Origin: Betaproteobacteria bacterium | GTDB lineage: Bacteria; Pseudomonadota; Gammaproteobacteria; Burkholderiales; SG8-41 | Assembly (NCBI GenBank): GCA_029864385.1 | Contig: JAOTTL010000002.1 | Span: 1 to 49,120 of the forward strand | Reading direction: 5' to 3' | DNA: 49,120 nucleotides | Part shown: positions 5,792 to 38,950 of the stretch, one piece after another | How positions within the stretch are numbered: the stretch's first letter is position 1 | How the letters are laid out: each line of letters opens with the position of its first letter | Made by a program: the position numbers and the translations under genes | Notes under the pieces: generated by a model | Told to the model about the DNA's origin: nothing | The model's input: only the letters and a program-made list of their open reading frames with translations | Databases searched by the model: none

Positions 5792-7792
5792 ATGAGTTCC
5801 CGCGCTGAACTGGCCAACGCGATCCGCGCGCTGGCGATGGACGCCGTGCAACAGGCCAAATCCGGGCACCCGGGCATGCCGATGGGCATGGCGGAGATCG
5901 CGGAGGTCCTCTGGAACGATCACCTGCGTCACAACCCGGGCAATCCGTCCTGGCCGAACCGCGACCGCTTCGTCCTTTCGAACGGGCACGGCTCGATGTT
6001 GTTGTACTCGGTGCTTCATCTCACGGGCTACGACCTGCCCATGGCGGAGCTCAAGCGCTTTCGGCAAATGCACTCGAAGACGCCGGGTCATCCCGAGTAC
6101 GGCTGTGCGCCAGGGATCGAGACGACGACCGGCCCGCTCGGACAAGGCCTCGGCAATGCCGTGGGCCTGGCGCTCGCCGAACGCCTGCTCGCAGCCGAGT
6201 TCAATCGACCGGGGTTCGACATCGTCGACCACCATACCTACGCTTTTCTCGGCGACGGCTGCATGATGGAAGGCATCTCGCACGAGGTTTGCGCGCTCGC
6301 CGGAACTCTGGGACTGGGCAAGCTCGTCGCCATCTACGACGACAACAGCATCTCCATCGATTCGGGAAAAGGCCAGATCCGGCAATGGTACACGGACGAC
6401 GTCAAGCGGCGATTCGAGGCGTATGGCTGGCAGGTGATCCCGAACGTCGATGGTCATGACGTCGACGCGGTGAACCGGGCGATCAGGAAGGCGCGTCGCG
6501 AGAAATCCAGGCCGACGTTGATCTGTGCAAAGACGATCATTGCGAAAGGGGCACCGTCCAAGGCCAACACCGGCGCCGCGCACGGTGAACCGCTCGGCGA
6601 AAAGGAGATTACCGCGACCCGCGAGGCACTGGGCTGGGGGCACCCGCCTTTCGAGCTGCCGGCAGCCGTGTACGAAGGCTGGGACGCGCGCAAGCGCGGC
6701 GCCTCCGCCGAAAGGCGCTGGAAACGCCTGATTTCCGCCTACGAGAAGCAATATCCCGCCGAGGCCGGGGAATTCTGGCGGCGCAGCGCGGGCGAGCTGC
6801 CGAGCGATTTCGCGGCGCGGGTCGAGGCGTTGGTCAAGGAAACGGACTCGAAAGCGGAAACGCTTGCCACGCGCAAGGCATCGCAAAATGCGCTCGAAGT
6901 CCTGGTGGCAATGCTGCCGGAACTCGTGGGCGGCTCGGCCGACCTGACAGTTTCAAACCTGACCATGGTGAATGCATCGAAAGTGGTTGGGCACGAGGGC
7001 GGCGGCAATTATCTTTTCTACGGCGTGCGTGAATTCGGCATGTGCGCGATCATGAGTGGGCTGACACTGCATGGAGGCCTGATTCCGTACGGCGGCACGT
7101 TCCTCGTTTTCTCGGACTACGCGCGGAATGCGTTGCGCATGGCGGCGCTGATGGGGGTGCGCGTAATTTATGTATTTACGCACGACTCGATCGGCTTGGG
7201 CGAGGATGGGCCCACGCATCAGCCGATCGAGCATGCCGCAACGCTCAGGCTCATGCCCAACATGCACGTGTGGCGGCCGTGCGACACGGTGGAGTCGGTC
7301 GTGGCATGGTCTGCCGCGCTAGAGCGCAAAGATGGCCCGACGAGCCTGTTGCTCACGCGCCAGGCCGCGCCGTTCATGAAGCGCGCACCGGAACAGCTCG
7401 ACCTCATCCGGCGCGGCGGGTATGTGCTAGCGGACGCGGCCGGAGTGCCCCCAAGTTGCATCATCATTGCGACCGGCTCCGAGGTTGCGCTGGCGCTCGA
7501 AGCACACCGGCAGCTCGCGGCCGAAGGCATCGGGACACGGGTGGTATCCATGCCCTCAACCAACGTGTTCGATGGGCAGGACGAGGCCTATCGCGCGAGC
7601 GTTTTGCCGCGCGGCGTGCCGCGCGTGGCGGTCGAAGTCGGCGTGCCCGATTATTGGCGTAAGTACGTCGGTCTCGACGGCGCGGTAATCGGCATAGACC
7701 GCTTCGGCGAGTCAGCGCCGGCGGGGGAACTTTTCAAGTACTTCGGCTTCACACCAGAAAACGTTGCCGCCGTGGTGAAGGCGGCGCTTTAA
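5792..7792 (+). CDS. tkt: transketolase
   Basis: [21 protein letters not shown] motif [12 protein letters not shown], full length 666 aa. Confidence 0.95.
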
Positions 7793-7814
7793 GCTTGGCA
7801 ATCAACGGGAATAA

Positions 7815-10009
<2,195 letters not shown>

Positions 10010-10016
10010 CGGCGCC

Positions 10017-10129
10017 GTTCAATGTTCCGGATTCCGAGTTCAAGGTTCTGGGCTTGACGTTCCACGCGACCCGCCAAGCCATTAGACTACAAACCCGGAA
10101 CTTGGAACGTTGAACCCGGAACTCGGAAC
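10017..10129. repeat. inverted heptad word arrays (5 x GTTCnnn / 5 x nnnGGAA) in the pgk-pyk spacer
   Basis: 10017-10051: GTTCAAT GTTCCGG ATTCCGA GTTCAAG GTTCTGG. 10094-10128: CCCGGAA CTTGGAA CGTTGAA CCCGGAA CTCGGAA. The arms are about 72% complementary, with a 41-nt spacer. Confidence 0.9.
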
Positions 10130-10135
10130 AGGCTG

Positions 10136-11563
10136 ATGCCCCGCCGCACCAAGATCGTCGCCACGCTCGGCCCCGCTTCGAGCGACAAGAAGACGCTTGC
10201 GCGCATGATCGATGCCGGGCTTGATGTCGTGCGCATCAACTTCTCGCACGGCGCCCCCGACGAACATCGCAAGCGCGTCGAGCTGGTGCGCGCGCTGGCG
10301 CGCAGGGCGGGCCGCGCGGTCGGCGTTCTGGTCGATTTGCAGGGCCCGAAGATCCGCATCGGCCGTTTCCGCGACGGCAAGGTGAACCTGAAGATGGGCG
10401 GGACATTCATGCTCGATGCGGAGTGTGAGCTTGGGGATGGGCACCGCGTCGGTCTCGACTACCGCAACCTTCCTAAAGACGTGGACGCCGGCGATACGCT
10501 GCTGCTCGACGATGGGCGCATCGTGCTAGGCGTGGCGTCCGTTCGCGGTTCGCGCATTCACTGTGTGGTGGAGCAGGGCGGTGTCTTGTCCAACAACAAG
10601 GGCATCAACCGTAAGGGTGGCGGCCTGACCGCGCCGGCGCTGACGGAAAAGGATATGCGCGACATCAAGCTGGCGGCTGAGTTGAAAGCCGACTTCCTCG
10701 GCGTGTCCTTCCCGCGCTCGGGGTCGGATATCCGCTGGGCGCGGGATCTTATGCACAAAGCCGGCGGCCGCGCACTGACCGTGGCGAAGATAGAGCGCGC
10801 GGAGGCCATTACGGCGCTGGAGGACATTCTTGACGCCGCAGATTGCATCATGGTGGCGCGCGGGGATCTAGCCGTCGAAGTGGGAGACGCCATAGTGCCT
10901 GCGCTGCAGAAGCGCATGATCCGCTTGGCACGCGAAAAGAACCGGATCACGATCACCGCAACGCAGATGATGGAGTCGATGATCAGCAATCCGATTCCGA
11001 CGCGCGCCGAGGTGTCCGACGTGGCCAATGCCGTCCTGGACGGCACCGACGCGGTGATGCTGTCGGCGGAGACGGCGACCGGCGGCTACCCGGTCGAGAC
11101 GGTGGCCGCAATGGCGCGTGTTTGCGCGGAAGCGGACAAGGAGGACGAGCCGGCCACCGACCGGCGGCGTAACCGGCCACCGGCGAATGTCGAGGAGTCA
11201 ATCGCACGGGCGACGGTTTTCACCTGCAATAACCTGAATATCAAGGCGGTATCGGCCATGACCCAGAGCGGGAACACGGTACTGCTGATGTCGCGAATGT
11301 CCACCAACGTGCCGATCTACGCGATGAGCGCGGGGGTCGAGACGCGACGCCGTGTCACGCTGTTCCGGGGCGTCTACCCGGTTAAGTTCAAAGGCGCTCG
11401 CGATCCCGAAAAGGCGCTTCACATGGCGGAGGATGAGCTCCTCAAGCGTGGCGCCGTGCAGATCGGGGACTACATGGTGCTGACGATCGGCGAGCCTTTC
11501 GGCAAGGTCGGCGGCACCAACACGATGAAGATCGTCCAGGTCGGCGAGCATCGGCGGGCCTAA
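10136..11563 (+). CDS. pyk: pyruvate kinase
   Basis: RRTKIVATLGPAS, IMVARGDLAVEVG, 475 aa. Confidence 0.95.
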   Translation: MPRRTKIVATLGPASSDKKTLARMIDAGLDVVRINFSHGAPDEHRKRVELVRALARRAGRAVGVLVDLQGPKIRIGRFRDGKVNLKMGGTFMLDAECELGDGHRVGLDYRNLPKDVDAGDTLLLDDGRIVLGVASVRGSRIHCVVEQGGVLSNNKGINRKGGGLTAPALTEKDMRDIKLAAELKADFLGVSFPRSGSDIRWARDLMHKAGGRALTVAKIERAEAITALEDILDAADCIMVARGDLAVEVGDAIVPALQKRMIRLAREKNRITITATQMMESMISNPIPTRAEVSDVANAVLDGTDAVMLSAETATGGYPVETVAAMARVCAEADKEDEPATDRRRNRPPANVEESIARATVFTCNNLNIKAVSAMTQSGNTVLLMSRMSTNVPIYAMSAGVETRRRVTLFRGVYPVKFKGARDPEKALHMAEDELLKRGAVQIGDYMVLTIGEPFGKVGGTNTMKIVQVGEHRRA

Positions 11564-11670
11564 TGGCTGTAAATGGTGAAGCGTGAATGGTGAATGATGA
11601 GTCGAAAGGGGTAAAATAAAGGGCTCAGGGTTTGTAGCGTTCTTCACCAGTCACAAGCTACCCGTCACGC
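11562..11670. repeat. inverted heptad arrays (GTGAnnn / nTCACnn) in the pyk-fba spacer
   Basis: 11562-11603: AATGGCT GTAAATG GTGAAGC GTGAATG GTGAATG ATGAGTC, starting in the pyk stop codon. 11643-11670: TTCACCA GTCACAA GCTACCC GTCACGC, the reverse-complement word type. Confidence 0.85.
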
Positions 11671-11687
11671 AATTCCGAGGAGTTCAT

Positions 11688-15877: not shown

Positions 15878-17413
15878 GTGTCCCACGAAGACCTCCTGAG
15901 GCAGCTCGAGGAGAACACCACCGCCGCGCTTGCGATGGGCGGGCCCGAGAAACTCGCCGAGCGCAAGGCCCAGCGGCTGCTCAATGCGCGCGAGCGCATC
16001 GATTATCTCGTCGACCCGGGGTCCTTCGTCGAATCGGGCCGCTTTGCCCGCGCGATCCGCCCCGAGGTGAGGCACAAGACGCCGGCTGACGGCAAGGTCG
16101 TGGGTTTCGCGCGGATCGGCGGGCGGGAAGTTGCGCTCGTCTCGAACGACTTCACCGTGCTCGGCGCCTCGTCGAGCGTGGTCAACATGAAGAAGATCAA
16201 GCATGTCAAGCAGACCGCGTCCAAGCGCGGTTTGCCGCTGGTCCTGCTTGGCGAGTCCTCGGGCGCACGCATGCCGGACCGCATGGGCGCGGCCGGGCGC
16301 GCGATCATCGCGCAGGATTCCACTGAGTACCAGCGGCTGCGCGAGACCCCCTGGGTTTCTGCGTTGCTCGGCCAGTGCTACGGCTCTTCAACGTGGTACT
16401 CGGCTATGTCCGATTTCGTCGTGATGCGCAAAGGTGCCATCATGGCGATCGCCAGCCCTAGCGTTACCTCCATCGCGATTGGCAAGCCGATCGACCCGGA
16501 GGACCTGGGCGGCTGGAAGCTCCTGACCGGTATCTCCGGGCTGGCCGATCTGGCGGTCGACACTGACGAGCAGGCGCTCGACGCCATCAGGCGATTCCTG
16601 TCCTACCTGCCGAGCCACAGCATGGAGCCGCCGCCGGAGTACCCCGTGCCGGCCGGCTCGGATGAGCCGTGCCGCAAGGTTCTCGATGTCCTGCCCGAGT
16701 CGCGCAACAAGGTCTATGACGGGCGCAAGATCATCGCCGCGATCGCGGATCTCGAGTCGCCCTTCGAACTGAAAGAGCGCTACGGCCGTTCCGTGTCGAC
16801 TGTGTTCGCGCGCCTCGACGGCAAGAGCGTGGGCTTCGTCGCCAACAACCCCCTGTTCAAAGGCGGGGCGCTTGATGCAGACGCGTGCCAGAAGGTCACG
16901 AGCTTCATGGTGCTGTGCGATTCCTTCAACATCCCTCTCGTGTTCCTGGTGGATGTGCCCGGATTCCTGATCGGGCTTGAGGGCGAGATGCGCGGCATGC
17001 CCGGCAAGGTGATCAACTGGATGAATGCACTGACGCAGGTTACCGTGCCCAGGATCACGGTCATCATGCGCAAGAACTATGGCCAGGCGTTCATCAACAT
17101 GGGCGGCGGCAAGAACACCGACGAGGTGGCGTGCTGGCCGATGGCGGATCTGGGATTCATGGATCCGGCGGTCTCCGTCAACGTGCTCTACGGATTGAAG
17201 CGCGAAGACGATCCGGAGCGCTTCAAGGAACTCGTGGCCGAGGTCGAGCGCGACACGGCGCCTTGGGGTCTCGCCGAACTCTACGAAGCACAGAACGTGA
17301 TCGATCCGCGCGATACGCGTCAATTCCTGATTCGCACGTTGCAGGTCCACCGCATGCGCATGAAAAGAGGCGTGGGCGAGCACCTGTTGCGCAACTGGCC
17401 GACGAGCTATTAG
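15878..17413 (+). CDS. acyl-CoA carboxylase carboxyltransferase subunit (paralog 1)
   Basis: GTG start 11 nt after the cupin stop. Carboxyl-transferase domain motifs VSNDFTVLGASSS, FVANNPLFKGGALD, ACWPMADLGFM. About half the residues are shared with 25831..27366, including the identical C-terminus WPTSY. Confidence 0.9.
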   Translation: MSHEDLLRQLEENTTAALAMGGPEKLAERKAQRLLNARERIDYLVDPGSFVESGRFARAIRPEVRHKTPADGKVVGFARIGGREVALVSNDFTVLGASSSVVNMKKIKHVKQTASKRGLPLVLLGESSGARMPDRMGAAGRAIIAQDSTEYQRLRETPWVSALLGQCYGSSTWYSAMSDFVVMRKGAIMAIASPSVTSIAIGKPIDPEDLGGWKLLTGISGLADLAVDTDEQALDAIRRFLSYLPSHSMEPPPEYPVPAGSDEPCRKVLDVLPESRNKVYDGRKIIAAIADLESPFELKERYGRSVSTVFARLDGKSVGFVANNPLFKGGALDADACQKVTSFMVLCDSFNIPLVFLVDVPGFLIGLEGEMRGMPGKVINWMNALTQVTVPRITVIMRKNYGQAFINMGGGKNTDEVACWPMADLGFMDPAVSVNVLYGLKREDDPERFKELVAEVERDTAPWGLAELYEAQNVIDPRDTRQFLIRTLQVHRMRMKRGVGEHLLRNWPTSY

Positions 17414-17440: not shown

Positions 17441-17458
17441 TAGCCGCAGATAAGCGCC
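17441..17458 (-). repeat. copy of the GCGTTTATCTGCGGCY motif (reverse strand)
   Basis: The plus strand reads TAGCCGCAGATAAGCGCC, whose reverse complement is GGCGCTTATCTGCGGCTA. Confidence 0.8.
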
Positions 17459-17534
17459 GATTAGATCAATAAGTGGTTAGAGGGTGAGCTGGCAGGCTTG
17501 CGCGAAATCGTTTCCAGTCCAGGGAGGGTGTGAA

Positions 17535-21344: not shown

Positions 21345-21371
21345 TAGCCGCGTTTATCTGCGGCTAAATCG
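21345..21371 (+). repeat. copy of the GCGTTTATCTGCGGCY motif, here a 7-bp hairpin TAGCCGC gtttatct GCGGCTA
   Basis: TAGCCGCGTTTATCTGCGGCTAAATCG. It overlaps the GntR stop codon (21354-21356). Confidence 0.85.
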
Positions 21372-22154
21372 GGTTTTTGACCTGCTTGGCGGCGATCGGC
21401 GGTTGCACTGAGTAGGCGGGTTAGCGGTTTCAGTCCACTCACGACTCACGATGGACGCTTTTTCCAGTAGCTTGATTGCGGCGTCGCGCGAATCGCGGAC
21501 GCGTCGCTCCGCGGCCTGTTGGGCCGCTTCCCCGTCTCCCTCACGGATGGCTCGCACCAGCTGCTGCCAGCTCTTGAGAGATTGACGTCGCCGTTCCGGA
21601 GTGGAAAGGCCGAGCCGCGAGTAACGCAGGGTTTGCAGGGCGAGCGAGCCGAGGATGCTGCTTAGTCGCTTGTTGGGTGTCGCCTCGTTGAGCAGCCGGT
21701 TCACTTCGGATACCGTTTCGACGTAACGCGCGCCGTCCCCTGCCTCGCGCACGAGACGGGTGAGCTTGCCGACCTCGGCCTCGATCACCGGCAGCAAGTT
21801 CAGCCGCGCCGGGTGATCGGCGAGCTGGCGGTCACGCAATCCGTTGAGCACCGCCCGAATGTCAAAGATCTCTCGCACCTCATCGACCGAGAGATTGGTG
21901 ACCTGCGCGCCGCGGCGCGGCAGGATGGTGACCAGGCCTTCTTTCTCCAGCAGGCGCAGCGCTTCGCGCACCGGCCCGCGGCTCACTGCAAACTCCGCGG
22001 CGACTGCCTGCTCGAGTACGCGCTGCCCCGGTCCGTAAGCACCGCTCGCGATGCGTCGCGAAAGCTCCGCGGCGATCTGCTCGGACAAGGATTGGGTGAG
22101 TGAGGTCGCGCCGGCCGGCTCGCTCCTGCCGCGCGCCTCAAGGGGGTGCGCCAT
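21354..22154 (-). CDS. GntR-family (FadR/FCD-type) transcriptional regulator
   Basis: wHTH LEQAVAAEFAVSRGPVREALRLLEKEGLV followed by a helical FCD-like domain. The start is placed at ATG 22154 because an earlier Met would read through the operator-like palindrome. The last ~35 codons lie in repeat-element DNA. Confidence 0.85.
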   Translation of the reverse strand: MAHPLEARGRSEPAGATSLTQSLSEQIAAELSRRIASGAYGPGQRVLEQAVAAEFAVSRGPVREALRLLEKEGLVTILPRRGAQVTNLSVDEVREIFDIRAVLNGLRDRQLADHPARLNLLPVIEAEVGKLTRLVREAGDGARYVETVSEVNRLLNEATPNKRLSSILGSLALQTLRYSRLGLSTPERRRQSLKSWQQLVRAIREGDGEAAQQAAERRVRDSRDAAIKLLEKASIVSREWTETANPPTQCNRRSPPSRSKTRFSRR

Positions 22155-22434: not shown

Positions 22435-23679
22435 ATGCCAAAGCGGGAAATCGAAGGCGATTGGGTTCTCGGCTGGCCGGACCGGAAACGACCGGCGATC
22501 ATACCGGGCAAGGATGCCGAAGGCCGCGTGATCAATGGCCGTGCGCCGGTGACTGAGCTCGCCGGCTTGATCACCCCGAATGAGGCGTACTACATCGTCA
22601 ATCAACTCGAGGCGCCGGATGCGGTGCATCCGGACGACTGGAAGCTCTCGATCAAGGGTGAGGTCGAGCGCCCGTTCGAGCTCGATTTCGAAAGCCTCAT
22701 GAAACTGCCTGGCCGCAGCGTGCGTGGGGTGACCGAATGTGCTGGCAACGACGCCGGCTTCTTCGACTATCTGCGCAAAGGCGCGAAGAAGCCCTCGCGC
22801 GTCAACCAGCAAGACATGCAGAAGCGCGCCGAGCAACGCGTGAAGGGCGAGCTCCCGTCCAGCGAGGAAATCAGCTCCGAGTCGACGACAACGTGCGCGG
22901 TGAGCGCGGGCGAGTTCACGGGCGTGCCCCTCGTGGAGGTGCTCAAGCGTGCCGGCATGAAGCCGGGTGCCGTCTGCGTGCGCGCGCAGGGATTCGATAC
23001 CGGTCATCCGGACACGGCGGTGATCTATCGCTCGGTGGGGACTCGAGATTTCGAGATTCCGGATCCCGGCGTGATCCACTACGAGAAGGCGCTGCCGCTC
23101 GAGAAAGCGCTCGATCCGGACACGATCCTTGCCTGGGCGCAGAACGGCGAATACTTGTGGCATGTACACGGATCGCCCGTGCGTCTCATCGTGCCGGGAT
23201 GGTCGGGCAACTGGTGGGTGAAGTGGGTCGAGGAGCTCGAAGTGATGAGCACCATGCCCACGCCCTTCTACCAGAGGGAGTACTTCGTTTACGGGGAATC
23301 GGCGCAGGATCCGGAAAAGCCACCGCTGATGGCCATGGGGGTGCGCAATATCATCACTGAGCCGCTCGACGAGGACTCACCGCTTCCGCGCGGCTCCCAC
23401 ATGATTCGCGGGCGTGCCTGGAGCGGAAAGGGTGCGATCACGCGCGTGGAGGTGAGCTTCGACGAGGGCAAGACCTGGACCGACGCTCATCTGGAGGAGC
23501 CGCGCGAGCGGTGGTTGTGGCGGCGCTGGTCATTTCTGTGGGAGGTAGACAAGCCCGGCCAGTACAAGATCATGGCCCGGGCCACTGACGAGACCGGCCG
23601 CGTCCAGCCGCAGACCCCGTGGAATTTCCAGCGCAAGCACTTCGATTGGATCGTGCCCACTGAGATCACTATCGTTTAG
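22435..23679 (+). CDS. sulfite-oxidase-fold molybdopterin oxidoreductase (no signal peptide)
   Basis: Mo-ligand cysteine motif VTECAGN, oxidoreductase molybdopterin-binding domain plus C-terminal Mo-co dimerisation-like domain (ITRVEVSFDEGKTW). RBS AGGGAGGG. No Tat or Sec signal. Confidence 0.85.
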   Translation: MPKREIEGDWVLGWPDRKRPAIIPGKDAEGRVINGRAPVTELAGLITPNEAYYIVNQLEAPDAVHPDDWKLSIKGEVERPFELDFESLMKLPGRSVRGVTECAGNDAGFFDYLRKGAKKPSRVNQQDMQKRAEQRVKGELPSSEEISSESTTTCAVSAGEFTGVPLVEVLKRAGMKPGAVCVRAQGFDTGHPDTAVIYRSVGTRDFEIPDPGVIHYEKALPLEKALDPDTILAWAQNGEYLWHVHGSPVRLIVPGWSGNWWVKWVEELEVMSTMPTPFYQREYFVYGESAQDPEKPPLMAMGVRNIITEPLDEDSPLPRGSHMIRGRAWSGKGAITRVEVSFDEGKTWTDAHLEEPRERWLWRRWSFLWEVDKPGQYKIMARATDETGRVQPQTPWNFQRKHFDWIVPTEITIV

Positions 23680-23768
23680 TGATGAGTGATGAGTGATGAG
23701 TGATGAGTGACGAGTGACGAGTGACGAGTGACGAGTGACCAGCGACCAGTTACCAGTGACGAGTGAGT
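23678..23768. repeat. 13 tandem heptads: 4 x AGTGATG, 4 x AGTGACG, then AGTGACC AGCGACC AGTTACC AGTGACG AGTGAGT
   Basis: Starts inside the Mo-enzyme stop codon (TAG 23677-23679). The complementary words AGCCACC CGTCACC CATCACG lie at 23894-23914, just before etfB. Confidence 0.95.
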
Positions 23769-25726: not shown

Positions 25727-25811
25727 GCCGCAGATACACGCAGATAGAAACAGATATTCTGGCTCCAGACGCACAATCGGGAGTTGGTTTCATGGGCGTT
25801 TATCTGCGGCC
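25727..25811. repeat. 3 x 10-nt array (GCCGCAGATA CACGCAGATA GAAACAGATA) facing an inverted GCGTTTATCTGCGGCC motif
   Basis: Left arm 25727-25756, right arm 25796-25811, in the etfA-CT2 spacer. Confidence 0.9.
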
Positions 25812-33389: not shown

Positions 33390-33755
33390 ATGACCGGCGG
33401 TCAATACAGCCAGGCGCGTGAGGAGAGCGTGGACACGCTGCAAGTCGGGATGAGGCACACCGTGGAGTGGGAAGTCACGGAAAAACTTTGTACGAGCCGA
33501 GGCGAATACAAAGTTTTCTCCACGCCGTCGATGACGCAGTTCGTCGAGATGGCGTCCCAGAGCCTCGCCGCGCCGCATCTCAAGCCCGGCCAGGGGCAGG
33601 TCGGCATCTCGGTCAACATCCGGCATCTCGCGCCCACTCCGATCGGCAAGAACGTGCGGGCCGACGTGGAGCTGATCGGCATCGACCGGCGCAGGCTCGC
33701 CTTCAAGGTCAAGGTGTTCGACGACGTCGAACAGGTGGGCGAAGCCGAGCACTAG
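33390..33755 (+). CDS. hotdog-fold thioesterase (FlK-like), apparently 3'-truncated
   Basis: VGMRHTVEWEVTE..FSTPSMTQFVEMAS..GISVNIRHLAPTPIG..V.A.VELIGIDRRRLAFKVKVFDDVEQVGEAEH-stop. As I recall them, family members continue with ERxxV plus ~15-20 aa after this His. Confidence 0.65.
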   Translation: MTGGQYSQAREESVDTLQVGMRHTVEWEVTEKLCTSRGEYKVFSTPSMTQFVEMASQSLAAPHLKPGQGQVGISVNIRHLAPTPIGKNVRADVELIGIDRRRLAFKVKVFDDVEQVGEAEH

Positions 33756-34045
33756 CAGCCTGTCGGACTCGACGGTCCACAGGCTGCTTAGGGCAAAACC
33801 GCCTGAGGATTTGGCATGAATCTGAACCAAATGACCTCCTCTTGCCCCGCTCCGTTGGAGTCGGATCGAATTCATGTTCCTCTAAGTCTTTCTTGTCGTT
33901 GTAATGCCGGCGGTTTTGCCTCAGGAGTTTGTCAGACCAAAGTCCGACAAACTCCTCGCGGTTCGTGATCGATATGGACAAGTACCTCGAGCGGTTAAGG
34001 AAGAAACTCGAACCGAAGAGATAGAGAGAGAAACAAGAAGTCTAA

Positions 34046-34077
34046 TTGAACCGCCAAGACGCGAAGCACGCCAGGAA
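34046..34077 (-). repeat. reverse-oriented copy of the TTGGCG..GGCGGTTCAG block
   Basis: The reverse complement TTCCTGGCGTGCTTCGCGTCTTGGCGGTTCAA matches 37922-37953 at 26 of 32 positions. Confidence 0.8.
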
Positions 34078-34092
34078 TTCAAGAATTAAATG

Positions 34093-34167
34093 GCTTAACG
34101 CCCCCGATGAGGGGCTGCGGGGACCGCGCAGCGCGTCACGCAGTTCCTCTCGATCGGCATGTTAGGC
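34093..34167 (-). mobile_element. attC-like recombination site (candidate)
   Basis: On the minus strand the site reads GCCTAAC...61 nt...GTTAAGC, matching RYYYAAC / GTTRRRY. The 75-nt site folds by hand into an imperfect hairpin with paired outer and inner boxes, a CCC bulge and one extrahelical G (34152). Confidence 0.55.
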
Positions 34168-34631
34168 GGCGCTAAGGCCGTTATTCCAGCGGCCTCAAGA
34201 CGTAGCGGTCGAGCGAACCGAAGCCTTACTGGTACGCCAACTCCAGATGGCTGACGCAATTAAAGCCAGAAGTCCAAGGGTCTCGACGATCTTGTTGAAG
34301 AAGATGTACATGCTCCCGACGATAACAACCGCGCCGAGAACCGACAGAATCATTGGCCCAAGAACGTGATGTTTTCTATATCCCAGAAAAACGAAACCCA
34401 GCGTGAGCACCGCAAACAGGCTGACCACCGCTGCTTGAATGTGCGGGTTAATGGCGATGGTGATGCCAAAAACTGAAAGAACAGCGACGACTATAAACAG
34501 GCCATTACATGCAATGAACGCCAGAATAGCCGCGGCACCCGGCAGCCAACCCAGTTTTCCCGAGCCCTTTTGCGTGTCAGCGGCCATAGCTCACCTCTTT
34601 CACATTGCGAACTGTTTTGTCAAAAGCCTAA
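34099..34631 (-). mobile_element. candidate integron-type gene cassette (533 nt, G|TT to G|TT) carrying the MerC-like ORF
   Basis: GTTAGGC core (plus 34626-34632) lies 38 nt upstream of the ORF start, and the attC-like site begins 27 nt after the ORF stop. GC content is visibly lower than in flanking DNA. No integrase in the window. Confidence 0.5.
34195..34587 (-). CDS. small 4-TM membrane protein, MerC-like
   Basis: Four hydrophobic helices with a central GYRKHH motif, resembling MerC-domain proteins as recalled. Own RBS GAGGTGAGCT-ATG. Lower GC than neighbours. Confidence 0.5.
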   Translation of the reverse strand: MAADTQKGSGKLGWLPGAAAILAFIACNGLFIVVAVLSVFGITIAINPHIQAAVVSLFAVLTLGFVFLGYRKHHVLGPMILSVLGAVVIVGSMYIFFNKIVETLGLLALIASAIWSWRTSKASVRSTATS

Positions 34632-34633
34632 CG

Positions 34634-35674
34634 TCATGTTGAGCGGCGCGCGCTTGTCGCGCGGCCGCTCGAACTAAAGTCAGCCGTGCTGTCAGCGAAT
34701 TTGAGCGTCGCCCCACGCGCGAGAAGTCTCTGGGCCTGTGTCACCATGGCGTCTAGGATGCTCGCCGCACTCGGGCGGTCGTGGATGAGGCCGACGCATT
34801 CGCCGGCCCCCACCGCGACCATATCGAAATCTTGTCGCGACCTCGCTTCCGCGTAAGCTGCGGCGACTGATCCGAACGCCGCGGTTGCGTCCGCTTCACG
34901 GTGCGCCCACTGCTCCGTCAGCTTGTTCTTGAGAACCCGGTACGAGAACTCTGCGGGCCACGAAACGCCCCGCAGAGCGTCAATCGCCTTCGTACGCACC
35001 GTGTCGTCGCCAGTGGCGCGTGCCGCCCTGTCCGATGCGGCCACCGGGATAAGAGCTTCCTCGGAAGACAGGAATCTTGTGCCGACAACGACACCGTCAG
35101 CGCCCAGCATCAACGCCGCGGCAAGCCCTCGACCGTCCGCAATTCCCCCCGCTGCGAGGAGCAGTGTGGTTGGCGCTCTCCTGGCCAGATAGTCGGCCAC
35201 CTCCGGCACGAACGGCAGGGTCGAGCGAAGGGCACCATGACCTCCGGCCTCTGCCCCCTGGGCAACGATCGCGGCGGCGCCAGCCTCAATCGCTTGGTCC
35301 ACATGTCGCAGCGATTGCACCTGGCAGATCAGCTTGGCGCTGCTCCGCAGGATCCGTTCAGCGAACGGCCTCGGGTCACCGAAAGAGAGAAATACGCAAT
35401 AGGGGGAATGGCTAAGCACCTCATCGAGCACGTGGGGAGCGCGTGCCAGCGCCCAGGTGATAAAGCCGACACCGAACTTCTGCCCCTGGACATGTGAGAG
35501 TTCCTGCGTGAGATCAGGTTCGCCGCCAAGGATACCGGCGTAACCTCCACCGACGATTCCGAGCCCACCAGCACCAGACACAGCCGCCGCCAATCGGCCC
35601 CCGGTAATGAGTGCCATGGGGGCGCAAATGATTGGGTGCTGGATTCCGAAAGCATCAGTCAATCGCGTTCGCAT
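34634..35674 (-). CDS. nitronate monooxygenase (NMO / 2-nitropropane dioxygenase family, FMN-dependent)
   Basis: HPIICAPMALITGGRLAAAVSGAGGLGIVG, TIM-barrel FMN motifs, 346 aa. The C-terminal ~20 codons run through a GC hairpin at 34641-34670. Confidence 0.9.
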   Translation of the reverse strand: MRTRLTDAFGIQHPIICAPMALITGGRLAAAVSGAGGLGIVGGGYAGILGGEPDLTQELSHVQGQKFGVGFITWALARAPHVLDEVLSHSPYCVFLSFGDPRPFAERILRSSAKLICQVQSLRHVDQAIEAGAAAIVAQGAEAGGHGALRSTLPFVPEVADYLARRAPTTLLLAAGGIADGRGLAAALMLGADGVVVGTRFLSSEEALIPVAASDRAARATGDDTVRTKAIDALRGVSWPAEFSYRVLKNKLTEQWAHREADATAAFGSVAAAYAEARSRQDFDMVAVGAGECVGLIHDRPSAASILDAMVTQAQRLLARGATLKFADSTADFSSSGRATSARRST

Positions 35675-35696
35675 GTCGATTTCCTACATTAACTTC

Positions 35697-35901
35697 CGTG
35701 AATCGTGAGTCGTAAATCGACGATATCTTGGCGCGCTTGGCGTCTTGGCGGTTCAGTTCTGGTTCTTATCGGCGTGTATCGGCGTCCATCGGCGGCGAAA
35801 AAAACCGTAAATCGTGAATCGAATCTTTGTTCCTCCTCTGTGTTCTCTGTGCTCTCTGTGGCCAATTGCTTTTGACTTTATCCGCGTTCATCTGCGGCTC
35901 A
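35697..35901. repeat. composite modular repeat element, copy A
   Basis: Blocks in order: CGTGAAT-type heptads 35697-35724; TCTTGGCGCGCTTGGCGTCTTGGCGGTTCAG 35726-35756; TATCGGCG x3 35767-35797; heptads 35806-35826; CTCTGTG x3 (9-nt) 35835-35863; GCGTTCATCTGCGGCT 35884-35899. Confidence 0.9.
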
Positions 35902-36780
35902 TTTCCGCTTTGCCATGGTGGACGGATTAAGCGACCGGGGATCGCGCGGCCGCCAACGCCCCGAGTCCACGAGGGACAGGAATTCATCCGTGATGCCGTG
36001 GAAGAGATCCGGCTCCTCGACGTTGACCGCGTGGCCAGTCGCGGGCACGACCGTCAGGCGTGCCGCGGGGCAGACGCGCTTGATGAAGATCGCGGGATCC
36101 AGGCAGTTGTTGTCCTCGTCACCCGTGATGATGTGGGTCGGCACCTTCATCCGCCGCAGTGACCGCTCCAGGCTGTAGAGCGTCGGGCGGCGCGCCTGGA
36201 CACCGCGCAGGGTGTTCGCCGAGCCGAGCGCCGAGTGCGTGGCGAACATCATGCAGAATTCGCGGAAACTCCGCGGGTCCTTGTTCTGCAGCTGCACCCG
36301 GGCCGGCCCGATCTGGTAGACCTTGATGGCTTGTGGCGTGCCAAGCTCGTCGAAGCGACGCGCCATCACCTCGGTGTCGCGCTGGAATTGGTGGCGTTTG
36401 TCCGGGTCTGATCCATAGCCGACGCCAATCGACGTGACTGAGCGCGCCATGTGGGGGTAGCGCAGCCCGAAGTGGAGCGCCGCAAAACCCCCCATCGAGC
36501 AGCCGATGACGTGCGCCTTGCGGATCTTCAGATGCCGCAGCACGTTGGCGATATCGTCGGTCGCGATCGCCTGTGAGTATTGGGAACCCGCCTTCGGCAC
36601 TTCCGAGGGCGGATAGCCGCGCGCGTTGAACACGATGCAGCGATAACGGCGGCTAAAGTAGCGGATCTGCGGCTCCCAGCCGCGCATATCGTGGGCGAAC
36701 TCGTGCACAAAGATGAGGGGTGTGCCGCGGCCCGCTTCTTCGTAGTAAAGCCTCACCCCGTTGGAATCAGCAAAAGGCAT
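35899..36780 (-). CDS. alpha/beta-fold hydrolase (paralog 1)
   Basis: Nucleophile elbow GCSMGG and HEF..D oxyanion region. ATG 36780 is preceded by GGAG. C-terminal tail WRPRDPRSLNPSTMAKRK is shared with paralog 2. Confidence 0.85.
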   Translation of the reverse strand: MPFADSNGVRLYYEEAGRGTPLIFVHEFAHDMRGWEPQIRYFSRRYRCIVFNARGYPPSEVPKAGSQYSQAIATDDIANVLRHLKIRKAHVIGCSMGGFAALHFGLRYPHMARSVTSIGVGYGSDPDKRHQFQRDTEVMARRFDELGTPQAIKVYQIGPARVQLQNKDPRSFREFCMMFATHSALGSANTLRGVQARRPTLYSLERSLRRMKVPTHIITGDEDNNCLDPAIFIKRVCPAARLTVVPATGHAVNVEEPDLFHGITDEFLSLVDSGRWRPRDPRSLNPSTMAKRK

Positions 36781-36800
36781 CACTTACTCCGTTATAGATG

Positions 36801-36990
36801 TGTGAGTCGTGAATCGTAAAAGGTGAATCGTGTTTCTCTCTTTTTGGCGCGCATGGCGCGCATGGCGCCGTGGCGGTTCAGTCCGGAAACTTATCGGCGT
36901 TCATCGGCGGCGAATCAGATCTGTTCGGGGTTCGAAGTTCTGGGTTCTCTATTTCTTTGTATGTATTGATCCGCGTTTATCTGCGGCTCA
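36801..36990. repeat. composite modular repeat element, copy B
   Basis: Heptads TGTGAGT CGTGAAT CGTAAAA GGTGAAT 36801-36832; TGGCGCGCA x2 ..TGGCGGTTCAG 36845-36881; TTATCGGCGTTCATCGGCGGCG 36891-36912; GTTCGGG GTTCGAA GTTCTGG GTTCTCT 36923-36950; GCGTTTATCTGCGGCT 36973-36988. Confidence 0.9.
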
Positions 36991-37869
36991 ATTCCGCTTT
37001 GCCATGGTGGACGGATTAAGCGAACGCGGATCGCGCGGCCGCCAGCGCCCCGAGTCCACGAGCGCGAGGAACTCGTCGGTGATGCGGTTGAAGAAATCCG
37101 GCTCCTCGGCATTCACCACGTGACCGCTGGCAGAGACCACGGTGAGGCGCGCAGCAGGACACATGCGCTTGACAAAGAGGCCGGGGGCGAGCGCGCCTTC
37201 GTCTTCGTCGCCGACCACGATGTGAGTCGGTACGTTCATGCGGCGCAGCCCGGCCTCGAGCTGATAGATGCTGGGCCGCCGTGCCTGCAGCCCGCGCAGC
37301 GTATTGGCGTGGCCGGCAGCCGAGCCCTGCGCAAACTTCGTCCAGAAATCACGGTAGCCGCGCGGGTCCTTGTTCTGCATCTGCACCCGGTTGGGCGCGA
37401 GCTGGTAGACCTTCTTCGCCGCCAGAATGCCGCGCTCTTCGAACAACCGCGCCATCGCTTCGTTGTTGCGCAGAAACTCCTTGCGCTTCGCGGGGTCGGA
37501 ACCCGACCCGGCGCCGACCGCGGTGAGCGAGAGCGCCATTTTCGGATAGCGTATGCCGAAATGCAGCGTTGCCGCCGCGCCCATGGAGCAGCCGATGATG
37601 TGGGCCTTGCGCACGCCCAGGTGTCGCATCACGTTGGCGATGTCGCCGGTTGCGATGTTCTGGGAATAGCCGGCGGGCGTCCGCGGCACGTTTGAGGGCG
37701 GGTAGCCGCGCGCGTTGTAGGCGATGCAGCGGTAGCGCCGGCTGAAGTGCCGCAGTTGCGGCTCCCAGCTGCGCATGTCGCCGGAAAATTCGTGCACGAA
37801 CACGATCGGCGTGCCGCGTCCCGCTTCTTCGTAGTAAAGCTTTACGCCATTGGAATCAGCATAGGGCAT
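36988..37869 (-). CDS. alpha/beta-fold hydrolase (paralog 2)
   Basis: GCSMGA nucleophile elbow. Roughly two-thirds identical to paralog 1 by eye, with a near-identical last ~30 aa. Confidence 0.85.
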   Translation of the reverse strand: MPYADSNGVKLYYEEAGRGTPIVFVHEFSGDMRSWEPQLRHFSRRYRCIAYNARGYPPSNVPRTPAGYSQNIATGDIANVMRHLGVRKAHIIGCSMGAAATLHFGIRYPKMALSLTAVGAGSGSDPAKRKEFLRNNEAMARLFEERGILAAKKVYQLAPNRVQMQNKDPRGYRDFWTKFAQGSAAGHANTLRGLQARRPSIYQLEAGLRRMNVPTHIVVGDEDEGALAPGLFVKRMCPAARLTVVSASGHVVNAEEPDFFNRITDEFLALVDSGRWRPRDPRSLNPSTMAKRN

Positions 37870-37888
37870 CGTTCTCTTCCTTCAAAAG

Positions 37889-38025
37889 CGTGAATCGTGA
37901 ATGGTGAATCGTCTTTCCTTCATCTTGGCGTGCTTGGCGTTATGGCGGTTCAGTTTAATCCAGGTTCTCTCGGCGTCTCGGCGGTTCCCCCGTTGAATAA
38001 TCTGTGTGTATCTGTGGCTAAATCG
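37889..38025. repeat. composite modular repeat element, copy C
   Basis: CGTGAAT CGTGAAT GGTGAAT 37889-37912; TCTTGGCGTGCTTGGCGTTATGGCGGTTCAG 37923-37953; TCTCGGCGTCTCGGCGGTT 37967-37985; AATCTGTGTGTATCTGTGGCTAAATCG 37999-38025. Confidence 0.9.
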
Positions 38026-38950
38026 TATCAGACCTTTCCGGCGCGCTTGGCGCCAGCTCGGCGCGGTGGGTGATGAAAATACCGACGAGAACCACGATGC
38101 CCCCGATGATCCCGGTTGCGCCCAGCGTCTCGCCCAGCAGAATCCAGGCGAACACCGCGGCCATGACCGGCTGAAAAAGCAGGCCGACGGAAGAAAACGT
38201 CGCCGGCAGGTGCGCCATCGCGTACGCGATCAAGCTCTGGCCCGCTACCTGCGCGATGATAGCCAGCGCGAGCAGCTTGACCCATCCCATCGCAGTAAAC
38301 GGCAGGATCTGCTCGCCCGAGGCGAGCGCAACCGGCAGCAGCAGCACCGCCATCACCGTGCAGCTCCAGGCCATGATACTCGAGGTCGGGACGCGAGCGC
38401 GCAGGCGCGTGACCGCGAGCTGGTAGGCCGCGTAGAACATGGCGGTCACCACGCCGAGCAGATCGCCAAGCACCGCCAAGCCGCCGACGCGGAAATCCGT
38501 CCCGAGCAACGTCGCAGTACCTGTCAGCGCGGTAACGAGGCCCAGCGCGAATAGTCCGGATGGGCGCCTCGCAAACAGGAGCCACGTCGCAAGCGTTACG
38601 AAGATCGGAGCGAGATTTGCGAGGAGTGTTGCGTTCGCGACCGAGGTGAGCACGATCGACCAGTGCCAGAACGCAAGGTCTCCGGCAAAAAAGAAGCCCG
38701 CAGCGATGATGAGCCCGCGATGAGCGACGAAAGCGGACCACAGCGCTCCGCGTTGCTCGATGATCGCCCAAGCCCAGAGGAACGGGAGCGCGAGCGAAAC
38801 GCGCCAGAAGGCAGTGGCGACAGGCCCGGCCTCGCTGACCTTGACGAACAGCGCTGACGTGGCAATAGCGAGCGCACCGGCGAGCAGCGCGGCGACCGCC
38901 ACGCCACGCCGGCGATCGTGACGTCGCGACAACACCGCGCCGTCAGCCAT
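38018..38950 (-). CDS. DMT-superfamily (EamA-like) transporter
   Basis: ~10 hydrophobic helices in two EamA-like halves; 310 aa. Confidence 0.85.
   Translation of the reverse strand: MADGAVLSRRHDRRRGVAVAALLAGALAIATSALFVKVSEAGPVATAFWRVSLALPFLWAWAIIEQRGALWSAFVAHRGLIIAAGFFFAGDLAFWHWSIVLTSVANATLLANLAPIFVTLATWLLFARRPSGLFALGLVTALTGTATLLGTDFRVGGLAVLGDLLGVVTAMFYAAYQLAVTRLRARVPTSSIMAWSCTVMAVLLLPVALASGEQILPFTAMGWVKLLALAIIAQVAGQSLIAYAMAHLPATFSSVGLLFQPVMAAVFAWILLGETLGATGIIGGIVVLVGIFITHRAELAPSAPERSDTI

Follow-up and report, generated by a model that had tools for sequence, protein, structure and literature searches.

Spacers of a co-directional betaproteobacterial gene row are mosaics of short tandem arrays resembling interspersed extragenic repeats

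Several kinds of short repeat have been described from bacterial intergenic DNA, and we compare them here with three spacers, S1, S2 and S3, that lie between consecutive minus-strand genes in a 49,120-nt stretch of a Betaproteobacteria bacterium (GenBank assembly GCA_029864385.1, contig JAOTTL010000002.1, positions 1 to 49,120; this whole stretch is called the window below). Repetitive extragenic palindromic (REP) sequences and bacterial interspersed mosaic elements (BIMEs) often stand directly after stop codons and within operons, and the modules that make up S1–S3 do likewise. BOX elements of Streptococcus pneumoniae are intergenic, transcribed and modular (boxA-(boxB)n-boxC), with variable tandem internal units; their modules of 45–59 nt stand in fixed order and are confined to one genus. 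S1–S3 are modular composites like BOX elements but have no sequence similarity to them. Cyanobacterial short tandemly repeated repetitive (STRR) heptamers are comparable short intergenic tandem units.

Like the REP/BIME sequences of Enterobacteria and the REPINs (REP doublets) of Pseudomonas, the modules here are high-copy, short and extragenic, and occur singly or as convergent hairpin doublets (PMC3116915, PMC3733652). They also share with these systems mosaics with linker motifs, the lack of target-site duplications and persistence at orthologous sites. They differ in being built of tandem units of 7–10 nt rather than individual palindromes of 20–40 nt, in having as leader TTGAACC, TGAGCC or TAGCC and no GTAG/CGTC head, and in the same-strand, non-folding arrays of S1–S3; moreover, no gene for the REP-associated transposase RAYT (Y1 transposase) was seen in the 49 kb of genome examined, nor is any transposase gene present among the genes of the window. 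Whereas REPs are species-specific, one module here is common to several phyla. MITEs (miniature inverted-repeat transposable elements) differ from the pairs formed by this module, termed b, in that 17 such pairs lack target-site duplications, and contingency loci differ in that no variation in unit number was seen here, which is weak evidence from three metagenomes.

Arrays of short tandem units have been reported several times. Classes 1–3 of Gmet_I in Geobacter metallireducens consist of 3–5 tandem units of 7–9 nt, mostly in opposite-strand pairs at variable distance; the sites are intergenic, also inside operons, and were described as species-unique and read as DNA sites of IHF/HU-like global regulators (PMC2700814). 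Reverse-complemented, their class 2 unit TCTCCGTS(Y) gives the CACGGAGA family found here; leader words, a link to stop codons and mosaics of linear type were not reported for Gmet_I (PMC2700814). The GGGAATC heptamers of Xanthomonas and GGGGA(C/T)T heptamers of Nostoc form about 190 intergenic arrays per genome, with 70–75 convergent inverted pairs, and from one species to another the arrays stay paired or single even where unit number changes; unlike the arrays here, they have a single G-rich unit, studied as a G-quadruplex former, and show neither a mosaic of families nor a cross-phylum leader word (PMC4692102). Direct repeats of the heptamer TAACTGA occur in marine Beggiatoaceae, Cyanobacteria and Bacteroidetes, and a post-transcriptional role was proposed for them (PMC4679880). 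As with the modules here, an identical short unit is found in distant phyla with no known transfer mechanism, and the arrays sit a few nucleotides upstream of start codons, as our block a does; in contrast to the spacers here, they form a single AT-rich family with an inverted pair in one case only and no reported composite spacers (PMC4679880). The same source gives 7 nt and neighbouring unit sizes as over-represented intergenically among long simple-sequence repeats (5–11 nt; Mrazek 2007), with Burkholderia and cyanobacteria among the richest genomes (PMC4679880). Long simple-sequence repeats are taken to be contingency loci or the outcome of slippage, to which the arrays here add leader words, strand rules, conservation and the absence of observed length polymorphism. 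New here are the leader word, the rules on strand and stop codon, the linear arrangement of arrays and a module that spans phyla. The locus links scattered reports, namely the 'global regulator sites' of Geobacter, the GGGAATC arrays of Xanthomonas and the TAACTGA repeats of Beggiatoa.

All genes at the locus are on the minus strand: S1 (35675–35898) precedes the NMO gene (34634–35674), S2 (36781–36987) precedes hydrolase 1 (hyd1, 35899–36780), and S3 (37870–38017) precedes hydrolase 2 (hyd2, 36988–37869) and follows the EamA gene (38018–38950). The reading that we prefer, with a probability of roughly 0.5, is that S1–S3 are BIME/REP-like mosaic intercistronic spacers of dispersed modules, which would have arisen partly through duplication of the hydrolase gene and would act on operon RNA. 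The unit of repetition is the individual module, not a composite of 140–205 nt; a module is a short tandem array of 2–6 units of 7–10 nt headed by a fixed leader word. Head-to-tail units of 5–11 nt are over-represented in the intergenic DNA, as in long simple-sequence repeats and STRR-type sequences. Because the defining features of long simple-sequence repeats are present, while the palindromic unit and GTAG/CGTC head of REPs and the target-site duplication of MITEs are lacking, we class S1–S3 as mosaic extragenic repeats built from tandem arrays.

An initial annotation had described these spacers as three tandem copies of one composite repeat, sharing blocks named a to f in a conserved order. 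Tandem Repeats Finder detects arrays where they had been placed: CGTGAAT arrays at 35697, 36802 and 37889, TTGGCG-type arrays at 35726 and 36845, an ATCGGCG-type array at 35767, a CTCTGTG array at 35836 and a TCTCGGCG array at 37968. Read in the direction of the genes, the three spacers have a linear layout in which arrays f, e, c and b, all sense, are followed by TCACG heptads (block a). All blocks are given here for the minus strand. S1 opens with f (35880–35898, GCCGCAGATGAACGCGGAT), which abuts the hyd1 stop codon (TGA, 35899–35901), and continues with e (35836–35863, a GGCC-(ACAGAGNNC)x3 array in sense orientation), d (35805–35825, a second short run of ATTCACG-type heptads), c (35767–35797, a sense (CGCCGATNNN)x3 array), b (35727–35756, the sense module CTGAACC-GCCAAGA-CGCCAAGCG-CGCCAAG) and a (35697–35719, heptads of ATTCACG type on the gene strand), which ends 22 nt before the NMO start codon. 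In S2, f (36969–36987, GCCGCAGATAAACGCGGAT) abuts the hyd2 stop codon and is followed by a block d of GTTCnnn-type heptads (36923–36949; GAACnnn on the gene strand) that is absent from S1 and S3, then by c (36890–36912, (CGCCGATNNN)x2), b (36844–36881, CTGAACC-GCCACGG-CGCCATGCG x2-CGCCAAA) and the heptad array a (36800–36832), ending 19 nt before the hyd1 start codon. S3 runs from a joint block e/f (38000–38017, CCACAGATACACACAGAT), which abuts the EamA stop codon (TAG), through a CGCCGAG variant of c (37966–37990, GGAACC-GCCGAGA-CGCCGAGAG) and b (37924–37953, CTGAACC-GCCATAA-CGCCAAGCA-CGCCAAG) to the heptad array a (37889–37911), again 19 nt short of the start codon, that of hyd2.

Blocks a, b, c and f align in register in all three spacers, with pairwise local alignment scores of 57–68 against 17–18 ± 2–3 for dinucleotide shuffles (z = 15–20), and S1–S3 score higher with one another than with any other spacer of the window. 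The block order of the initial annotation therefore holds for these four blocks, whereas e is a clear array in S1 only; its S2 counterpart is degenerate, and in S3 it coincides with f, c there being the variant form. The junction words are conserved as annotated: the window has three occurrences of GGCGGTTCAG in all, one per spacer, and ATCTGYGGCT adjoins the stop codons of hyd1, hyd2 and EamA. The placement of f at the upstream stop codon and of a close to the next start codon (19–22 nt) was likewise borne out. The f junction word ATCTGCGGCT also occurs once within the hyd1 coding sequence (36665–36674), probably by chance.

These spacers are modular composites with copies elsewhere, but not a single 140–205-nt element tied to three genes, since relatives and other phyla hold the modules recombined into mosaics of other kinds; nor are S1–S3 tandem in the strict sense, because genes lie between them. 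In two metagenomes holding this strain, k-mer depth was 10–13 over the genes and was raised 15–40-fold over the spacers, reaching 164–481 over S1 (block b 164–216; block c highest, 377–481), 46–125 over the f end of S2 and 37–62 over S3. Of 146 aligned contigs, 95 run on into unlike sequence, and mosaic joints tie block b of one spacer to different blocks. Among the relatives compared, which include the sequences designated L004–L007 and L130–L146, close ones carry other module combinations at the same positions (for example, TGAACC-GCGGAG arrays, b and heptads), and modules have been gained or lost and unit numbers changed between relatives. A sequence-only model (R1), built from the conserved part of the S1–S3 composite, recovers further copies; a search with a model of the three copies had been proposed in the initial annotation. 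In the L004 relative (GCA_032123035.1; 92%), positions 7630–10586 hold three tandem hydrolase copies rather than two, and the spacer between EamA and hydrolase is expanded to a 505-nt mosaic with modules in both orientations.

The two hydrolases are tandem paralogues, 70% identical in amino acids and about 70% in DNA, except that the last ~80 nt of both genes together with block f are 93–95% identical, a sign of conversion or constraint in that tract. The orthologous spacers of L004 retain the order f-c-b-a, and the c+b junction of S1 is identical across 53 nt in L005. The duplication is older than the split from L006 and L138, whose spacers are wholly different hairpins; because of this age, and because S1 precedes a different gene, the likeness of S1–S3 is not the relic of one duplication. 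The initial annotation had anticipated that a single hydrolase duplication would not suffice, and this stands: c-b-a precedes NMO in S1, a further copy (34008–34077) lies at an unrelated gene, and the modules are dispersed. Judged from the sequences, the similarity of S1–S3 would stem in part from shared ancestry and in part from a shared module grammar.

Throughout the window and its relatives, almost every spacer longer than ~60 nt holds short tandem arrays with periods of 7–14 nt (in the window, for example, CGTGAAT, GTGATGA..., AGTGACG x12.7, CACGGAAACA, GGGAGATC and GCCGCAGATA), and some 85% of arrays with at least 2.5 copies fall in the ~10% of the window that is non-coding. Arrays also fill the spacers at syntenic loci of relatives with 92%, 86% and 82% hydrolase identity and the spacers of 80 more metagenomic relatives, so that short tandem arrays make up most of the intergenic non-coding DNA in this lineage, the spacers of glycolytic genes included. 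The leader words of sense arrays are TGAACC, TGAGCC or TAGCC, followed by RC, and in this lineage the TGA or TAG of the leader very often doubles as the stop that ends the gene upstream. The commonest layout is a convergent inverted pair of arrays forming a stable hairpin, with a left arm of GTGA type, often including the upstream stop codon, and a right arm of TCAC type that ends ~8 nt before the Shine–Dalgarno sequence; seven of the window's spacers are folded far more stably than their shuffles (z = −3.5 to −7.4), with values down to −8 for individual pairs. S1–S3 represent the second, linear layout. Their RNA is A-rich and U-poor (AT skew +0.35 to +0.43), their modules are direct tandem arrays with a 4-bp mini-stem in f only, their folding energy per nucleotide is the weakest among the long spacers, and folding against shuffles gives z = +1.2 for S1, −1.6 for S2 and +2.9 for S3; the stretch is unstructured, and its GC skew is −0.14 to +0.01. 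A C>G bubble of the rut type is absent from S1–S3 by that GC skew, a Shine–Dalgarno-like 'standby site' was dropped since Shine–Dalgarno-like 4-mers are not enriched, and stops in three frames were dropped as not distinctive for these spacers.

The initial annotation also implied a promoter and 5′-untranslated region in each spacer. A promoter scan for sigma-70-like sites, with other promoter types outside its scope, found none in S1–S3, and a terminator scan found no intrinsic-terminator-like site there; because the genes are co-directional, the spacers resemble stretches between the cistrons of one operon transcript more than they do promoter or 5′-untranslated elements. Against Rfam 15, no match reached the gathering score in the window and none had E ≤ 1 in 33800–38200, and a tRNA scan found nothing.

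Block b reaches well beyond this lineage. Its module has the form TTGAACC(GCCAAGNN)n, with a sharp edge at which a purine-rich flank gives way to T-TGAACC, a conserved leader, and 7 of every 8–9 positions conserved per unit. Searching GTDB genomes (one per species, 596 Gb) for the word TGAACCGCCA-N3-5-CGCCAAG-N1-3-CGCCA, which has 22 fixed bases and for which our own arithmetic predicts fewer than about 3 chance matches, returned at least 137 instances in at least 120 stretches. Among the matches listed are Planctomycetota, Verrucomicrobiota, Lentisphaerae, Myxococcota (with several copies in each of the Sorangium genomes), Cyanobacteria, Chloroflexota, NC10, WOR-3, Armatimonadetes, Desulfobacterota and alpha-, beta- and gamma-Proteobacteria. 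One module thus recurs near letter-for-letter in Planctomycetes, Verrucomicrobia, myxobacteria, cyanobacteria, Chloroflexi, Proteobacteria and phage-like contigs, and its GC-rich sequence is unchanged in cyanobacteria of 40% GC. The word also occurs in 11 IMG/VR viral contigs, and one phage-like contig of 10.5 kb holds four b copies on one strand along with many other U-poor intergenic arrays. The sister families CACAGAG, CGCAGAG, CGCAGAT, CACGGAG and CGCCGAT share b loci in other phyla, sometimes nested, and the CACAGAG family, which forms block e of S1, is also present at Sorangium, Pirellulales, Chloroflexota and Cyanomargarita loci. This cross-phylum identity points to a sequence-specific partner, either a copying enzyme or a binding factor. 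In searchable literature, the b word as text turned up only an unrelated primer, and searches of plasmid and phage records gave matches in unannotated stretches only. Resemblances to the T-loop of tRNA (GGTTCAAT), to the ops element (GGCGGTAG) and to ECF −35 boxes were set aside, as in each of them the bases that follow or the strand misfit.

With a relaxed pattern, b forms 17 convergent and 0 divergent pairs spanning 63–216 nt, the two arms of which share their variable positions, although single arms are commoner than pairs. Hairpins of convergent pairs fold with z = −6 to −13 (b–b pairs about −12). Terminal inverted repeats would fit the b–b pairs of other genomes, whereas S1–S3 hold single arms only; none of the 17 pairs has a target-site duplication. 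Between distant arm pairs no open reading frame (ORF) has an obvious transposase-like translation, and the DNA there holds small ORFs or a 6-phosphogluconolactonase-like ORF, as read from translations without a domain search. Rfam has no family for the single b arm or the b–b hairpin, the only matches being sub-threshold and miRNA-like.

Within 250 nt of hydrolase genes, two-unit type-II arrays are sense in 57 cases and antisense in 7, counts that are not independent because many are orthologous, and the unpaired type-II arrays of the window are all sense. Across phyla, co-directional spacers give 42 sense against 19 antisense arrays, under a crude ORF caller and with pairs adding one arm to each class. 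The stop in the module is in frame with a long ORF in 25 of 137 instances compared with 17–18 in control frames, a weak enrichment, and the stop-codon link is strong in this lineage only. At one site, downstream of the FlK thioesterase gene, modules g and b stand together in four lineages (the window, L005, L137 and L139); these orthologous modules are 77–87% identical pairwise, the adjacent coding sequence is 82–95% identical, and the 60–130 nt beyond them are only 21–65% identical, in flanking intergenic DNA that is unalignable. In three metagenomes with this strain, neither unit-number polymorphism nor indels were seen in the spacers, which is weak evidence because contigs drop rare variants.

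Under the reading that we prefer, EamA, hydrolase 2, hydrolase 1, NMO and MerC would form a co-directional row with S1–S3 between its cistrons; the hydrolase gene would have been duplicated along with its flanks, and its 3′ end and f homogenized by conversion or constraint. The modules would behave like REPs and BIMEs, being multicopy, restricted to spacers, subject to turnover between lineages and conserved once in place. The spacers may be transcribed as part of the operon and work at the RNA level as insulators between cistrons, not as promoters: a self-contained hairpin or an unpairable array would separate the upstream stop codon from the next ribosome-binding site, which in all cases lies just outside the arrays, and keep that site accessible, and hairpins could also protect 3′ ends. 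Several points weigh against this account. We infer co-transcription and any RNA role of S1–S3; a purely structural or insulating role leaves the near-identity of the 30-nt b word across phyla, and in cyanobacteria of 40% GC, unaccounted for; modules also lie between convergent and divergent genes and, in single cases, inside ORFs; the lack of a transposase in the window or between distant arm pairs, together with that of target-site duplications, leaves no identified copying mechanism; conservation at orthologous sites could come from gene conversion among copies instead of selection; and the cross-phylum orientation counts depend on the crude ORF caller.

In one alternative the arrays are purely selfish, non-autonomous DNA of REPIN or MITE type, copied by a transposase or recombinase encoded elsewhere and tolerated in spacers without host function, the likeness of S1–S3 reflecting insertion history plus gene duplication. 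High copy number, mosaic joints, convergent pairs of 63–216 nt that resemble terminal inverted repeats with co-varying arms, the unchanged GC-rich sequence in low-GC cyanobacteria, presence in viral contigs, in-frame or read-through occurrences within genes and the gain and loss of modules among relatives would all suit such DNA. We nevertheless consider it unlikely because target-site duplications are lacking, no transposase lies beside or between arms, single arms outnumber pairs, the bias to the sense strand and the stop codon is strong, conservation at orthologous sites equals that of coding DNA, and a 10.5-kb phage-like contig carries four copies, all sense. That same bias, and the embedded stop codon, would be unexpected for double-stranded operators. 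The placement of modules between unrelated housekeeping genes (pgk, pyk, fba), the many different unit sequences in one genome, periods of 7–9 bp that leave one helix face and the lack of a sigma-70-like promoter in S1–S3 also speak against operators. We therefore hold it to be improbable that the arrays are DNA sites for a global regulator or nucleoid-associated (IHF/HU-like) protein and the spacers promoter or operator regions for each of these three genes, a reading near that of the initial annotation, even though arrays occupy the whole space upstream of each gene, conservation of 7 of every 8–9 unit positions is typical of protein recognition, and similar paired tandem sites were annotated as putative global-regulator sites in Geobacter metallireducens (PMC2700814).

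An RNA-level alternative takes the sense arrays as loading sites on the nascent transcript for an RNA-binding factor, either Rho (at rut-like attenuators directly behind stop codons) or a protein of the cold-shock, S1 or CsrA type, that tunes polarity or translation between cistrons. Rho takes up roughly 9–10 nt per protomer, a spacing that would fit the 8–10-nt periodicity with a YC dinucleotide per unit, and the sense RNA is unstructured, U-poor and begins at a stop codon; the heptamer repeats before start codons in Beggiatoaceae were proposed as sites of a post-transcriptional regulator (PMC4679880). We doubt this strongly, because S1–S3 show no C>G bubble (GC skew −0.14 to +0.01) and no enrichment of Shine–Dalgarno-like 4-mers, Rho does not need a conserved sequence, and the hairpin-type spacers of the same genome misfit. 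Neutral replication slippage, with the spacers alike only through duplication of the hydrolase and its flanks, is the least likely rival and is largely refuted by the cross-phylum b word and by orthologous conservation like that of coding sequence. It could draw on the tandem paralogy of the hydrolases (70% amino acid identity; 93–95% over the 3′ ends and f), on unit numbers that vary between relatives and on the richness of Burkholderia-type genomes in simple-sequence repeats of 5–11 nt (Mrazek 2007, via PMC4679880). Yet the duplication predates the split from L006 and L138, whose spacers are completely different, and neutral spacers should by now have become unalignable; the gene after S1 is a different one, the b word and its leader occur in about a dozen phyla, far above chance, and three metagenomes with this strain show no length polymorphism.

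Going further than our preferred account of S1–S3 as mosaic intercistronic spacers, TTGAACC(GCCAAGNN)n and its sister families (CGCAGAG, CACAGAG, CACGGAG, CGCAGAT, CGCCGAT) might be an undescribed, cross-phylum class of gene-boundary element, read as sense transcript or single-stranded DNA by a conserved factor and punctuating operons between stop codon and next ribosome-binding site in a dozen phyla and phages; we offer this as speculation with the odds well against it. The leader word, stop-codon link, sense bias, hairpin versus unpairable layout and orthologous-site conservation are added here as testable rules. In practice, the modules break short-read assemblies, can extend or truncate ORFs and could mislead the annotation of promoters and small RNAs.

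The window lies within a 173-kb contig from a sediment metagenome and has a GC content of 63.8%. Its proteins have their nearest named relatives in Burkholderiales/Betaproteobacteria metagenome-assembled genomes (MAGs), on which ground an early assignment to Rokubacteria was abandoned, and its gene content is that of an ordinary chromosome (rsmB, an NtrBC-like pair, tkt, gap, pgk, pyk and fba), with acyl-CoA carboxylase and ETF genes in addition; the minus-strand genes are ACAD, ACAD, ECH, EamA, hydrolase 2, hydrolase 1, NMO and MerC. The further copy at 34008–34077 on the plus strand, annotated initially at 34046–34077, is real and longer than first described (R1 match of 30.5 bits, E = 8e-9): it consists of g (TCGAACC-GAAGAGATAGAGAGAGAAAC) and b (TTGAACC-GCCAAGA-CGCGAAGCA-CGCCAGG) and is placed downstream of what remains of the 3′ end of the FlK thioesterase gene. 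That gene is broken by an insertion of ~209 nt (33753–33961), in the first bases of which a TAG stop is found, and the relic comprises the last ~20 codons (33962–34025); in L005, L137 and L139 the gene is uninterrupted. Within the insertion are palindromes (CAGCCTGT...ACAGGCTG; GGAGTTTGTC...GACAAACTCC) as well as a 12-mer in inverted orientation (GGCAAAACCGCC / GGCGGTTTTGCC).

A shuffled copy had been annotated at 21345–21452, and on the minus strand its heptads, b/c-like stretch and f are recognizable by eye in that order, but the R1 match (21366–21404) is weak (E = 0.04). The C-terminal ~33 residues of the GntR/FCD regulator, past the FCD domain, are encoded by this repeat (21354–21452, minus), which comprises two CGTGAGT heptads, a b/c-like stretch and f, with the stop codon within f; from its sequence, this C-terminus looks like an extension of the ORF through repeats. 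On the plus strand, an f/c-type array (TAGCCGCAGATAAGCGCCGATTAGATC, 17441–17472) stands 24 nt downstream of a carboxyltransferase stop codon (17411–17413), and an f-type array (GCCGCAGATACACGCAGATAGAAACAGATA, 25727–25756) adjoins the ETF-alpha stop codon. The latter is the left arm of an inverted repeat (25727–25810), the right arm of which, GGGCGTTTATCTGCGGC, lies in the first carboxyltransferase codons; the resulting hairpin would take in the ribosome-binding site and start codon of that gene. The longest array of the window, (AGTGATG/AGTGACG) x12.7, extends from the stop codon of a molybdopterin oxidoreductase gene (23678–23766), and because this spacer folds with z = −5.3, it would have a TCAC-type partner before the ETF-beta start. 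In the region of 10010–10135 and 11564–11687, the pgk/pyk spacer holds GTTC.../...GAAC inverted arrays (z = −3.5) and the pyk/fba spacer GTGAAT-type heptads.

A Dehalococcoidia MAG (L027, 1400–2000) has five tandem units of ~115 nt, in each of which a b module lies beside a parS-like palindrome (TGTTTCACGTGAAAC). A 32-nt match (94%) to four CGCCAAGN units occurs in an unannotated stretch of the Vibrio parahaemolyticus plasmid pVP2HP (L129, 1501–1532) and of ten similar plasmids, these being plasmids of shrimp pathogens. In Scytonema sp. HK-05 (L053, 7527–7553), a b module is in frame (…NEPPSRQGRQEEE…) within an open frame of 972 codons, which by its translation has a Mg-chelatase H/CobN-type look and contains other repeat-like inserts (NQTPLSSPLTKGG x2).

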